Sequence record: OQ174504.1
Strand: one strand, 5' to 3'
DNA length: 64,000 bases
Source: Escherichia phage REP5
Position 1 is the stretch's first letter; each line of letters begins with the position of its first letter. The translations under genes and the position numbers were made by a program. The notes under the pieces were generated by a model. The model made no database searches. It saw only the letters and a list, made by a program, of their open reading frames with translations, and was not told the origin of the DNA. Shown here in pieces: positions 7,207 through 28,935 of the stretch.

Positions 7207-7236
7207 TCATAGGCTCCTTCGGGAGCCTTTTTTATT
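7207..7236 (+). terminator. Rho-independent terminator
   Basis: Hairpin aggctccttcgggagcct followed by T-run. Confidence 0.6.
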
Positions 7237-18909: not shown

Positions 18910-19695
18910 TTAGTTATTTGCGTCTAAGAAGGTAACTTCTGGTGAAGAGAAGATTGCCCCAATATCCTCATCAGTTCTTGCATAGATGTAGGCATCTGCA
19001 TCACTGCCAAATGTTACTGCAATCCTGTGATTGCTCTTCGACAGGTGGGTAACTAGAGCGTTACTTAGAGACATCTTTTCAACCGGAGGGTTACTTTGAT
19101 GTACCTTACCTTTTCTTCGTCTGAAGAGGGTAACTGCATTATCTGAGAACACTGCTACGCCTGCAAAGTATTCTGGTTCACAGTAGTTCTTCCAACCTGA
19201 GTGTAACTCATTATACATTTTTGCTTCATAGACATACAGATAAACATCTACACTCTTCATTGCCTGATTAATGATAACTGTGACAGCTTGAGGGTCAAGT
19301 CCACCGATACCTGCGCCAATCATAGGTAACCCAACTTTCTTCAACTGATTAACTTCACAGTATCTGTTAAGTTGCTTCAAAGATGACTCTAAAGCACTGT
19401 AACGGGCATCTTTACCAGTCTTAAGCTGAGTGTAAAGATTAGCTATACGACCTTGTTTTAAACGCGCTACAGAGAAATTACCTAGTAAATTTTCACAGGG
19501 TTTGTGGCCTATACCACCTGCATACAGATAAACTTCTGTATCGGTCTCATATGCTTTTGGGTAAAGTTTAGAAATCTTAGCAGCGATACCTGCACCCATT
19601 AAGTTCATACAGTTGCAACCGTGACCAATGATATCAAACTTACCCTTATCAAATGCGGAGAAGATATCCCCATTGATGATTTTTACAATACCCAT
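18910..19695 (-). CDS. Macro-domain protein (ADP-ribose binding/processing) with C-terminal extension
   Basis: 261 aa; INGDIF..DIIGHGCNCMNLMGAGIA and GLPMIGAGIGGLDP resemble macro-domain glycine-rich motifs. Confidence 0.6.
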   Translation of the reverse strand: MGIVKIINGDIFSAFDKGKFDIIGHGCNCMNLMGAGIAAKISKLYPKAYETDTEVYLYAGGIGHKPCENLLGNFSVARLKQGRIANLYTQLKTGKDARYSALESSLKQLNRYCEVNQLKKVGLPMIGAGIGGLDPQAVTVIINQAMKSVDVYLYVYEAKMYNELHSGWKNYCEPEYFAGVAVFSDNAVTLFRRRKGKVHQSNPPVEKMSLSNALVTHLSKSNHRIAVTFGSDADAYIYARTDEDIGAIFSSPEVTFLDANN

Positions 19696-21216: not shown

Positions 21217-21233
21217 TTAACAATCTCCTGAAA

Positions 21234-21258
21234 TGAAAAAAGGCTCCCGAAGGAGCCT
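21234..21258 (-). terminator. Rho-independent terminator
   Basis: Hairpin aggctccttcgggagcct plus T-run on minus strand. Confidence 0.55.
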
Positions 21259-21263
21259 GTGTA

Positions 21264-22076
21264 TTATTCTTGACTGTAATAGTTGACAAGTGAAATCGCT
21301 TGATTCATCAACAACTTATCAGCCTGTGCTCCGCGACCAGCTTGTAATGCCAGTTGGTATACCTCTGTAACATATTTGTTAGACATACCTTCACAGTAGT
21401 CATTATAGTCTTCCCAAAAGGAAAATGCAGCATCACCATATAGGCGTAGTGTAATTAACATTGCTGCACGAATCCCAGAAGAATATTTCCGTTTTGCGTT
21501 TACTACACCTTTAAGCTGTACTTCAAGAGAATCAATTTGTTCCAGCTCATTTTTAAAGTCGTTAAGATATTTAACTGTTTCAGTGTTAGATACTTGTTGT
21601 ACACCGTAGTATGCAGCAACATACTTAATAGCAGTTGCCCAAGATGCTTTCATCAGTTCTGACTCTGGGTTGAAAGAAATCATCTTCATATTTCCGTAAT
21701 AAACTTCTGAAGGTTTTTCTCTTGCTAACTCAGAGTCAAAATGAGTGTACAAATCTGTGACATCCAATATGGAGTTCACATGGTATATAACTACAATCAA
21801 GTTTTCTGGTCGTGTCAGGTTACCAACTTTCCATGCCTCTCGACGTGAGTGCCCATCAATGATGAACAGTGAACTGCCGAACTTAGCCACATGGACTACT
21901 GTTTGGTCTGGTGATACGTCACCATTAAGGTGTTTACTTTTCAGACGCTTAAGTGTATTTCGTTGACGAGGGTTTTCTTTGTAACGTTTTTCATTAAGAA
22001 AATCCTCGACACTGATAATCTTAGTGTGAATTTTAACAACCTTGCCATTCAGTGCTACATTGATGCTGTTTGCCAT
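21264..22076 (-). CDS. ParB/sulfiredoxin-like domain protein
   Basis: 270 aa; IIDGHSRREAW resembles the ParB-like nuclease domain motif. Confidence 0.5.
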   Translation of the reverse strand: MANSINVALNGKVVKIHTKIISVEDFLNEKRYKENPRQRNTLKRLKSKHLNGDVSPDQTVVHVAKFGSSLFIIDGHSRREAWKVGNLTRPENLIVVIYHVNSILDVTDLYTHFDSELAREKPSEVYYGNMKMISFNPESELMKASWATAIKYVAAYYGVQQVSNTETVKYLNDFKNELEQIDSLEVQLKGVVNAKRKYSSGIRAAMLITLRLYGDAAFSFWEDYNDYCEGMSNKYVTEVYQLALQAGRGAQADKLLMNQAISLVNYYSQE

Positions 22077-22087
22077 AACTTGATACC

Positions 22088-22972
22088 TTAGTTGTGGATA
22101 ATTACTTCGTTAATATCTTTGCTTCTCTGTGCATGTATTGTGTATGAATGGCTAACCTCTGTCAAGTTAAAATTTTCAGGAATTAGTTTTGCCCATCCAT
22201 CCCACTGAGAGTTTGACATCAAAACTTTAGAGCCTAACTCCCCCCAAGAAATCATATCTTCGCATAATTTTACAGACATCTCAATGTCAAACTTTGCACC
22301 ATATTTCTGGTTGGTGTTGATATACGGGGGGTCACAGTAAATAACTGTGCCTTCTCCATGTTTTATGTCAACCCTGTCATAAGGTTCACTGCTAAGTATT
22401 ACCCTCTCATCAGTGATAAAACTGTAGAACGCGGATAGTGATTCTTTAGTTTTTGTGAAGAAAATCTCTTCTTCCAGTAAATACCCACAAGGTGTTGCAT
22501 AGTGACCTTTCATCTCTTTAGTAGTCTGCCATACACCACCAAAACTTAGTTTTTGAAGGAAAAACTGTCTGGCGTAGTACCTGTAGTCATATGCTCCCTC
22601 TTCACCAAGCAAAAGAAGTTCCTCTCTTACACTGTAATACATTTTATAGCGTAGACGGTTATGACGCTGGCCTTTCACGGCATACTCTTCCTGCATAGGT
22701 AAGGCTAAGTACCTCTTTGACAAGTACTCAAATTCTTCCATGAAGTTCTCATAGTCATCTCTGAAAGTTGTGTAAAGACCTATAATATGTTTATTTATCT
22801 CATTAATAAACACTTTTGCCTCTGGATATCTGTTATAAGCCCATATAGCTACTGAACCACCACCTGAAAACAGGTCATAGAAGTTTGTACAGTTGTCTGG
22901 AAAGACACCTAAACGCTCATACTCTTTTAATATTCTTGTTTTACCACCAAGATATTTGAACATCGGCTTCAT
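22088..22972 (-). CDS. dam: DNA adenine methyltransferase (Dam family)
   Basis: 294 aa; YLGGK N-terminus, FSGGGS SAM motif, DPPY catalytic motif. Confidence 0.8.
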   Translation of the reverse strand: MKPMFKYLGGKTRILKEYERLGVFPDNCTNFYDLFSGGGSVAIWAYNRYPEAKVFINEINKHIIGLYTTFRDDYENFMEEFEYLSKRYLALPMQEEYAVKGQRHNRLRYKMYYSVREELLLLGEEGAYDYRYYARQFFLQKLSFGGVWQTTKEMKGHYATPCGYLLEEEIFFTKTKESLSAFYSFITDERVILSSEPYDRVDIKHGEGTVIYCDPPYINTNQKYGAKFDIEMSVKLCEDMISWGELGSKVLMSNSQWDGWAKLIPENFNLTEVSHSYTIHAQRSKDINEVIIHN

Positions 22973-22990
22973 TAATACTCCTTGAAATTT

Positions 22991-23012
22991 AAAAAGGCTC
23001 CCGAAGGAGCCT
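22991..23012 (-). terminator. Rho-independent terminator
   Basis: Hairpin ggctcccgaaggagcc with flanking A/T runs. Confidence 0.5.
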
Positions 23013-23023
23013 GTATCTTAACC

Positions 23024-23488
23024 TTAACCGAGGACTTTAGCAAGGATATTCGCAGCCATCGAAGAAGCTTTTGCAGCAGCAACTACGCCAGCTTTGACAG
23101 TGCTATCCTTAATAGCAGATACCGTTGCAGCATCAGTAAAGAGATAAGTGATTGTTTTAGAACCACTTGTAAAGGAAAGCATAAGAGTAGTTTCCAGATT
23201 GAAAGAGCGATACGGAGCACCTTCTTTAACGATACCTTCAGCACCTAACTCTGAAGCCTTACCCATATCATAGATAGTCATCAGGTTTTCTTTGTGTGCA
23301 GTCGTTGAACCAGCACCTTTTACGTGTTTTTTAACATTCAACAATGCACGATATTCACGAATGCTGCCATCAGCTTTTACATTAACAGCACGGAAGATTT
23401 TACCCTCAAAGTTGCTCTTGATAATGTTACGAACTACTTCAGATTTGTTTTCCGTAACGTCCAGTGCTACCGTAATGATATTGTTCAT
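23024..23488 (-). CDS. Hypothetical protein
   Basis: 154 aa ORF. Confidence 0.6.
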   Translation of the reverse strand: MNNIITVALDVTENKSEVVRNIIKSNFEGKIFRAVNVKADGSIREYRALLNVKKHVKGAGSTTAHKENLMTIYDMGKASELGAEGIVKEGAPYRSFNLETTLMLSFTSGSKTITYLFTDAATVSAIKDSTVKAGVVAAAKASSMAANILAKVLG

Positions 23489-24719: not shown

Positions 24720-24780
24720 TGGTTCTCCTGTTTAGTTTATCGTGACAACAATTATACAGCACTCTGCACAAAATACAAAT

Positions 24781-24802
24781 AAAAAAGGCCGCCGAAGCAG
24801 CC
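24781..24802 (-). terminator. Terminator-like hairpin
   Basis: ggccgccgaagcagcc hairpin flanked by A and T runs. Confidence 0.45.
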
Positions 24803-24819
24803 TTTTAAGAAATTACTTA

Positions 24820-28913: not shown

Positions 28914-28935
28914 TAAAAAGGCTCCCGTAGGAGCC
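28914..28935 (-). terminator. Rho-independent terminator
   Basis: Hairpin ggctcctacgggagcc plus T-run on minus strand. Confidence 0.55.

Follow-up and report, generated by a model that had tools for sequence, protein, structure and literature searches.

Why does a lytic phage whose DNA contains no GATC site carry a gene of the Dam family, and what is the role of the ParB-like protein encoded beside it? This question is raised by a 64,000-nucleotide stretch of Escherichia phage REP5 (sequence record OQ174504.1; called the window below), in which the interval 21264-22972 consists of exactly two open reading frames (ORFs), both on the minus strand. One is a D12-class methyltransferase gene (22088-22972, 294 aa) and the other is a ParB-like gene (21264-22076, 270 aa). 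An initial annotation had located both ORFs correctly and had described them as a Dam methyltransferase with a ParB/sulfiredoxin-like gene upstream, which could together form a DNA modification or anti-restriction module. The word "upstream" is true only in plus-strand coordinates; in the order of transcription the methyltransferase gene comes first and the ParB-like gene lies downstream. The idea of a two-gene module received strong support, since the two genes are gained and lost as a unit, and the pairing is kept in relatives at 35-40% identity and with other methyltransferase families. It is thus likely that the two genes are functionally linked, and an anti-restriction role of the pair is plausible.

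An optional cassette between repeated terminators

REP5 is a Felix O1-like lytic myophage of the genus Felixounavirus, and over the region it shares 99.4% identity with Escherichia phage REP7. The two ORFs lie in different frames with an intergenic gap of 11 nt, and an AAGG Shine-Dalgarno sequence overlaps the stop codon of the methyltransferase gene. We investigated the presence of the two genes in 254 phage records matching the flanks. The pair was found in 13 of them and the methyltransferase gene alone in one (ESCO56); the rest, such as vB_EcoM_E9, have neither gene.

The insert is a 1754-bp indel between two direct repeat copies at 21229-21274 and 22983-23028, which are identical over 24 nt and 85% identical over 46 nt. 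Both a reading of the sequence and a terminator scan showed that this boundary repeat is an intrinsic terminator, that is, GGCTCC-TTCG-GGAGCC followed by a T-run on the coding strand. The upstream copy (ACAGGCTCCTTCGGGAGCCTTTTT, coding strand; 22991-23014, minus strand) lies between the phrog_2267 stop codon and the ribosome-binding site (RBS) of the methyltransferase gene. This RBS (AAGGAG, 22978-22983, minus strand) is found 7 nt past the terminator T-run, and the start codon follows 18 nt past the same T-run. The downstream copy (21237-21260, minus strand) has the same repeat and lies between the stop codon of the ParB-like gene and the i-spanin RBS. Empty sites, for example that of vB_EcoM_E9, have a single terminator copy. 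The 16-nt hairpin GGCTCCTTCGGGAGCC occurs four times in the window, where 0 would be expected: at 7212-7227 (plus strand), 21242-21257 (minus), 22996-23011 (minus) and 28920-28935 (minus, 1 mismatch). The repeated terminators could have served as recombination points for gain and loss of the cassette. No cassette promoter was detectable, and promoter-like matches were at chance level (16 versus 16.5 expected).

Both genes are under purifying selection. Between the window and ESCO45, the ratio of nonsynonymous to synonymous substitution rates (dN/dS) of the ParB-like gene was 0.02, with 73 nucleotide differences and 7 amino-acid changes. The methyltransferase gene has two alleles with a nucleotide difference of 14% and a dN/dS of 0.09-0.12, in which residues 128-165 and the catalytic motifs are unchanged. 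These low ratios indicate that both genes are functional and constrained.

Two phages show how the cassette can change. In ESCO56, a remnant of the ParB-like gene is left beside an intact methyltransferase gene (L003, 3218-3371); the first 14 nt and the last 116 nt are kept, about 685 nt are deleted, and about 33 nt at the deletion junction align to both sides. Because both ends of the ParB-like gene remain, the methyltransferase-only state is a secondary internal deletion. The cassette of the Salmonella phage FGS030 (L077, 764-2472) is mosaic: its methyltransferase gene differs from that of the window by 13.9% in nucleotides and represents the divergent allele, and its ParB-like gene differs by 1.6%. 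This mosaic implies that recombination took place at the 11-nt junction or close to it, and shows that recombination can separate the two genes.

Downstream of the cassette are the Rz-like i-spanin and o-spanin genes, and upstream of it are the phrog_2267 hypothetical gene, a polynucleotide kinase, a phrog_600 protein, rIIB and rIIA. Two records labeled "Campylobacter phage A132" and "A126" (MG065664.1 and MG065668.1) are 97% identical to the region, with the cassette included. These labels probably reflect mislabeling or contamination rather than a Campylobacter host.

The ParB-like family and its methyltransferase partners

The ParB-like protein belongs to phrog_2615, which is annotated as of unknown function, and contains the motifs NPRQR (residues 35-39), DGHSRR (74-79) and FDSE (113-116). 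A profile search of this protein had been suggested in the initial annotation as a check. It gave no Pfam match at E ≤ 10, with the ParB clan, PF02195 and HTH_ParB included, and no NCBIfam or PADLOC match at E ≤ 1. A profile search of the PDB returned nothing meaningful, and its top match was a de novo designed protein (E = 0.17). A word-indexed search with the single sequence detected only 2 clusters, whereas the family was recovered by an exhaustive HMMER search, which gave 501 representatives of 50%-identity clusters at E ≤ 1e-3. All of the 501 representatives are unnamed and have no Pfam domains.

We aligned 63 sequences of the family. G75 and R78 were invariant, and R39, D74, H76, W82, P90, L109, Y110, D182 and F220 were at least 90% conserved. 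The family consensus is DNPxQR ... KLDGHTR ... FDNxxAxE. The longer members that were scanned (P0020, P0056, P0135 and others) contain no fused methyltransferase, and only P0055 has an extra domain, which is a C-terminal HTH_23. One locus (L071) has two tandem paralogues of the family (61-888 and 949-1902), and the second is a 317-aa protein with the motif LLDGHSRRYAW.

The structure of the ParB-like protein was predicted with AlphaFold2 (pLDDT 95.2, pTM 0.84). The model has a beta/alpha fold over residues 1-115 and eleven helices over residues 122-269, so that the C-domain is all-helical; we set the N-domain at about 30-115 and the C-domain at about 120-270. When the model was compared with the PDB by Foldseek, the top ranks were occupied by ParB-CDP (6sdk, probability 0.98), Myxococcus xanthus ParB, PadC and sulfiredoxin. 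Among the viral models of BFVD, the closest matches beyond its own family were DndB-annotated proteins (E = 6e-5 to 9e-5), GmrSD_N/DUF262 (2e-4) and "ParB/Sulfiredoxin" proteins. In the model, DGHSRR lies where strand 69-74 ends and helix 76-84 begins, which is the position of the GxxR phosphate-binding motif of ParB. The equivalence of a motif at this position to ParB box II is established (PMC10164549).

The model therefore supports a ParB/sulfiredoxin (Srx)-superfamily fold with the architecture of DndB and DpdB for the second protein. Because the sequence profiles give no match, this assignment is carried by the predicted fold. The description "ParB/sulfiredoxin-like" thus stood as far as the fold and the DGHSRR motif are concerned; however, the protein is closer to the DndB/DpdB/DUF262 type than to a partition ParB. 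It does not have the DndB/DpdB/DUF262 signature DGQ(H/Q)R either, since the motif here is DGH(S/T)R, and neither PF14072 nor PF03235 matched. A canonical partition ParB was considered and rejected. The protein shares the N-terminal fold, an NPxQR-like motif and the GxxR arginine with ParB/Spo0J, but it is encoded by a lytic phage without a ParA nearby. No parS-like palindrome or repeat was found within or around the cassette, and the protein has no HTH_ParB match and no recognizable HTH or C-terminal dimerization domain.

In independent phage lineages, homologues of the ParB-like protein stand beside DNA methyltransferases, which belong to at least six families. The D12 partner itself is retained in four pairs that have diverged to 35-40% identity despite flips of gene order, and both proteins diverge in step. 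The ParB-like protein and the D12 methyltransferase show 40% and 38% identity in P0004/L072, where the order is flipped; 37.5% and 36% in P0005/L073, where the order is the same; and 34% and 35% in P0006/L079, where the order is flipped and the genes overlap by 8 nt. In the Mydovirus phages Ro1 and Mydo, a distant member of the ParB-like family lies directly upstream of a Dam-family gene.

Other methyltransferase types are found beside the family as well. A second hot spot of Felixounavirus, between rIIB and phrog_600, is likewise bracketed by terminators and holds a gamma-type type II methyltransferase gene followed by a ParB-like paralogue (GEP101, ESCO56, IME338 and others). In GEP101 this second-site cassette (L004, 1888-3981) consists of a terminator, a 299-aa methyltransferase, a 279-aa ParB-like protein that is 26% identical to the protein of the window, a 77-aa ORF and a terminator. 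The same site is empty in the window (24720-24819) and has a single terminator (24783-24806, minus strand). In cyanophage Syn19 an R.RsaI-like gene, a PF01555 methyltransferase gene and a ParB-like gene follow each other in this order, and in one metagenomic phage the ParB-like gene is followed by MT-A70.

We explored the neighborhoods further in 43 IMG/VR loci, which represent 32 lineages at 60% identity. A PF01555 methyltransferase occupied position +1 in 13 loci, and positions +1 to +3 in 8 of the 32 lineages, which are mutually only 30-53% identical. Two more loci have a C5 (PF00145) or a PF05869 methyltransferase within two genes. At the control positions ±3 and ±4, no methyltransferase was present among the 25 commonest families listed. 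A conserved three-gene block of an SF2 helicase (ResIII + Helicase_C, about 455 aa), the ParB-like protein and the PF01555 methyltransferase was also observed in several divergent uncultured phage lineages (L032, L046, L054-L060, L062, L064, L065 and L068). The helicase is usually found at position -1 in the PF01555-paired loci, and may be a third component of this version of the module.

The methyltransferase and its target

The methyltransferase matches PF02086 (MethyltransfD12) with 83.7 bits against a cut-off of 22 (E = 2.2e-23), over profile positions 1-253 of 253. It also matches phrog_56 (E = 9e-53) and MTase_II of PADLOC (E = 1.4e-30). Motif I (FSGGGS, residues 35-40) and motif IV (DPPY, 214-217) are intact and stand in the alpha-class order, as the initial annotation had noted. 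Because profile and fold matches back them, the motifs of the two proteins are far beyond chance. Judged from these matches, the enzyme is an orphan D12-class (Dam-family, alpha-type) N6-adenine DNA methyltransferase and a diverged member of that class. The cassette contains no cognate restriction endonuclease gene, and the flanking i-spanin and phrog_2267 genes are present in cassette-free phages too. A type II restriction-modification system was rejected, since no endonuclease gene lies beside the methyltransferase gene and the ParB-like protein has no PADLOC match. We also searched plasmids for close homologues of the methyltransferase beside a named restriction enzyme, and none exceeded 26% identity.

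The divergence of the enzyme is evident in several comparisons. Outside Felixounavirus, the most similar enzymes are those of cyanophages and Mydovirus, with 28-30% identity. Its scores fall below the TIGR00571 "dam" cut-off (99.4 versus 114.85) and far below that of NF008152, the E. coli Dam equivalog (23.9 versus 441). DpnM (2dpm) is matched at E = 6e-8, and the identity to DpnM and T4 Dam is about 25%. The recognition-hairpin region is SFGGVWQTT...ATPCG (residues 143-163). The DpnM hairpin FNGLYRVN aligns with SFGGVWQTT, and a Gln takes the place of the DpnM Arg; the closest homologues have SFGG[VA]WQ[TS]T in common. Like the orphan phage Dams (T4, T2, P1 and DpnM-like), the enzyme has a D12-class fold with FxGxG and DPPY in alpha order, is encoded by a phage and has no cognate endonuclease. 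However, it differs from them in its low identity, in its recognition hairpin and in the GATC-free genome of its carrier.

We counted the GATC sites of the window and found 0, compared with 180 ± 12 in dinucleotide-preserving shuffles and a Markov estimate of 221. GATC was also absent from all the Felixounavirus loci examined, with or without the cassette, from Erwinia phage phiEa21-4, and indeed from all the Ounavirinae loci examined. Nor does it occur in the short contigs from metagenomes on which the closest homologous pairs lie. The hosts, moreover, are already Dam-positive. A GATC-specific enzyme would thus have no substrate on the phage, and another specificity is most likely; from the sequence evidence, the target of the methyltransferase is probably a site other than GATC. 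The absence of GATC in the genus has previously been reported for VpaE1 and Alf5 (PMC4690856, PMC5477317). CTGCAG, CAGCTG, GGTACC and CCATGG are likewise missing from the window, and CCGG is depleted (14 versus 38).

A classical Dam that methylates GATC, as the enzymes of E. coli, T4 and P1 do, is suggested by the PF02086 membership and by the Dam-family annotations (NCBI-style) that related records give to this protein. However, it is very improbable in view of the missing GATC sites in the window, in the Felixounavirus loci and in the contigs with the closest pairs, of the Dam-positive hosts, of the scores under both cut-offs and of the Gln in the SFGG[VA]WQ[TS]T hairpin. "Dam" is therefore valid for this enzyme as a family name only, and the corresponding part of the initial annotation holds in the sense of the D12/Dam family but probably not in that of GATC methylation. 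Because the genomes of Felix O1-like phages contain no GATC, their "Dam" annotations are misleading. For the same reason, a methylation test of the DpnI/MboI type on DNA of this phage would be uninformative.

Possible functions of the pair

The association between ParB folds and methyltransferases is a known theme. The ParB-CTPase folds of phages bind CTP, ATP or GTP and often form fusions with methyltransferases, those of the N6_N4 type among them, although their role there is unknown (PMC12704722). Such fusions (PF02195 with PF01555, Methyltransf_23 or MT-A70; for example BCE_0392 of a B. cereus prophage) resemble the REP5 pair in that both bring a ParB/Srx module together with an N6-adenine methyltransferase, and both lie on a mobile element. 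An anti-defence role is suspected for them, as is proposed here for REP5 (PMC12704722, PMC5512222). However, the REP5 proteins come from two separate genes, and the ParB-like protein, which PF02195 does not recognize, has a helical C-domain of its own. The D12 class, to which the REP5 methyltransferase belongs, is absent from the ParB-fused domains listed in the 2025 survey (PMC12704722).

DpdB combines a ParB fold with a helical C-domain and carries the motif DGQQR, and its ATPase activity is needed by DpdA for DNA modification (PMC10164549). According to the model, the REP5 ParB-like protein has this same architecture of a ParB-fold N-domain and a helical C-domain. However, DpdA is a transglycosylase and not a methyltransferase, the motif differs from DGH(S/T)R, and no relationship can be demonstrated at the sequence level. 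DndB and the DUF262/GmrS N-domains (BrxU, SspE, DndI) fall into the same ParB/Srx branch by structure search and are associated with DNA-modification systems. The REP5 protein differs from this group in having no PF14072 or PF03235 match and no fused nuclease, in being encoded by a lytic phage, and in the chemistry of its partner, which is methylation.

We tentatively favor the possibility that the cassette is an anti-restriction methylation module, in which the ParB-like protein is a partner of the methyltransferase. The methyltransferase would mark the replicating phage DNA, which would then escape host restriction. The ParB-like protein would bind a nucleotide triphosphate and DNA, and would assist or gate the methyltransferase on the DNA. 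By analogy with related systems, we infer that the ParB-like protein binds NTP and DNA and cooperates with the methyltransferase, and that the pair has an anti-restriction role. Precedents for an accessory partner of this kind exist in the DpdB ATPase required by DpdA and in the phage ParB-methyltransferase fusions. The proposal is supported by the fold model, the invariant G75 and R78, the gain and loss of the cassette as a unit, the pairing through deep divergence and the purifying selection. Bas63, a Felixounavirus without the cassette, has been reported to be highly sensitive to restriction-modification systems (PMC8594841).

Several results weigh against this proposal. The cassette has no detectable promoter and starts 7 nt past a terminator. 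About two thirds of the sampled lineages have no adjacent methyltransferase, and the neighbors there are recombination and replication genes (YqaJ, RecT, ERF, RusA, DNA polymerase and helicase). No member of the ParB-like family was found fused to a methyltransferase. Finally, ESCO56 has lost the ParB-like gene and keeps an intact and constrained methyltransferase, which indicates that the partner is not strictly required; however, ESCO56 has a paralogous pair 2 kb away.

The last observation would also agree with a different role of the partner. DndB represses the dnd operon and restrains phosphorothioation, and the ParB-like protein might likewise bind DNA as a regulator, perhaps under the influence of ATP, that restricts methylation or sets its timing without assisting catalysis. 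The DndB-annotated and GmrSD_N/DUF262 proteins are its closest structural neighbors in BFVD beyond its own family, DndB and DpdB have the same architecture (PMC10164549), and one family member carries an extra C-terminal HTH. Nevertheless, we consider such a controller unlikely. The window offers no operator or promoter region, with the start codon so close behind the T-run, and no palindromic site was found; the gene order also flips freely relative to the methyltransferase. In addition, the covalent ParB-methyltransferase fusions elsewhere indicate joint action on DNA over transcriptional control (PMC12704722).

The loss of the partner in ESCO56, with the methyltransferase kept, is moreover the direction that would be tolerated in a toxin-protector pair. 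The ParB-like protein could thus be an NTP-regulated nickase or DNase that attacks DNA without the methyl mark of the cassette, whether of the host or of competing phages, and the cassette would then act in the manner of a restriction-modification system or serve for exclusion. Some proteins with a ParB fold are reported to nick DNA or to have DNase activity, namely a ParB-methyltransferase fusion of Bacillus cereus (BCE_0392), Osa and GmrS (cited in PMC5512222). A nuclease has little probability here, however, since the family shows no HNH, PD-(D/E)xK or SspE-type EHxxP motif, its helical C-domain is nearly invariant only at D182 and F220, and PADLOC gives no match. Most family members have no methyltransferase beside them and would be self-toxic, and Syn19 already has a separate R.RsaI-like endonuclease beside its methyltransferase. 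The many homologues among recombination and replication genes might instead be explained if the two genes were independent neighbors with unrelated functions, such as recombination or replication for the ParB-like protein, brought together by shared insertion hot spots; the FGS030 mosaic, in which one methyltransferase allele stands with the other ParB-like allele, would also fit. We regard this as improbable, because the pairing outlasts divergence to 35-40% identity with both proteins changing in step and with flips of order, is found again, in unrelated groups of phages, with methyltransferases of at least six families, and is not matched by any methyltransferase among the families listed at the control positions.

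If the anti-restriction proposal holds, the cassette would represent the known ParB-methyltransferase fusions in a variant form, with the two parts encoded by separate genes. A more general reading is rather doubtful, namely that the Pfam-less family is an interchangeable, NTP-driven accessory factor which stands beside phage methyltransferases of whatever family (D12, N6_N4, gamma-type, MT-A70, C5) and loads them or speeds them up on DNA in replication, so that the phage outruns restriction. As a corollary, the D12 subfamily with the SFGG[VA]WQ[TS]T hairpin could have a new, non-GATC specificity that evolved in GATC-free phages.

The window also encodes a 261-aa Macro-domain protein (18910-19695, minus strand; PF01661, E = 7e-8), which belongs to phrog_335 ("phosphatase") and is annotated as O-acetyl-ADP-ribose deacetylase in ESCO56. 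It is possible that this protein counters a defence or signaling system based on ADP-ribosylation.

Several features of the locus appear to be undescribed: the family without Pfam domains, the pairing of its members, as separate genes, with methyltransferases of at least six families, the cassettes framed by terminators at two hot spots of Felixounavirus, and an enzyme of the Dam family in genomes free of GATC. About 500 clusters of "hypothetical proteins" without a Pfam model are now given a fold and a context. ParB folds are among the commonest partners of phage methyltransferases, and the cassette offers a simple and tractable system in which to test what they do there. It consists of two separate proteins, and several carriers (REP7, tootiki, JLBYU28) grow on E. 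coli K-12. Natural controls are provided by the methyltransferase-only ESCO56, by about 240 relatives with neither gene and by the paralogous second-site cassette. If the family were indeed a general accessory factor, this would account for the frequent fusion of ParB folds with phage methyltransferases, and the split ParB-methyltransferase anti-restriction modules would be a new functional class.

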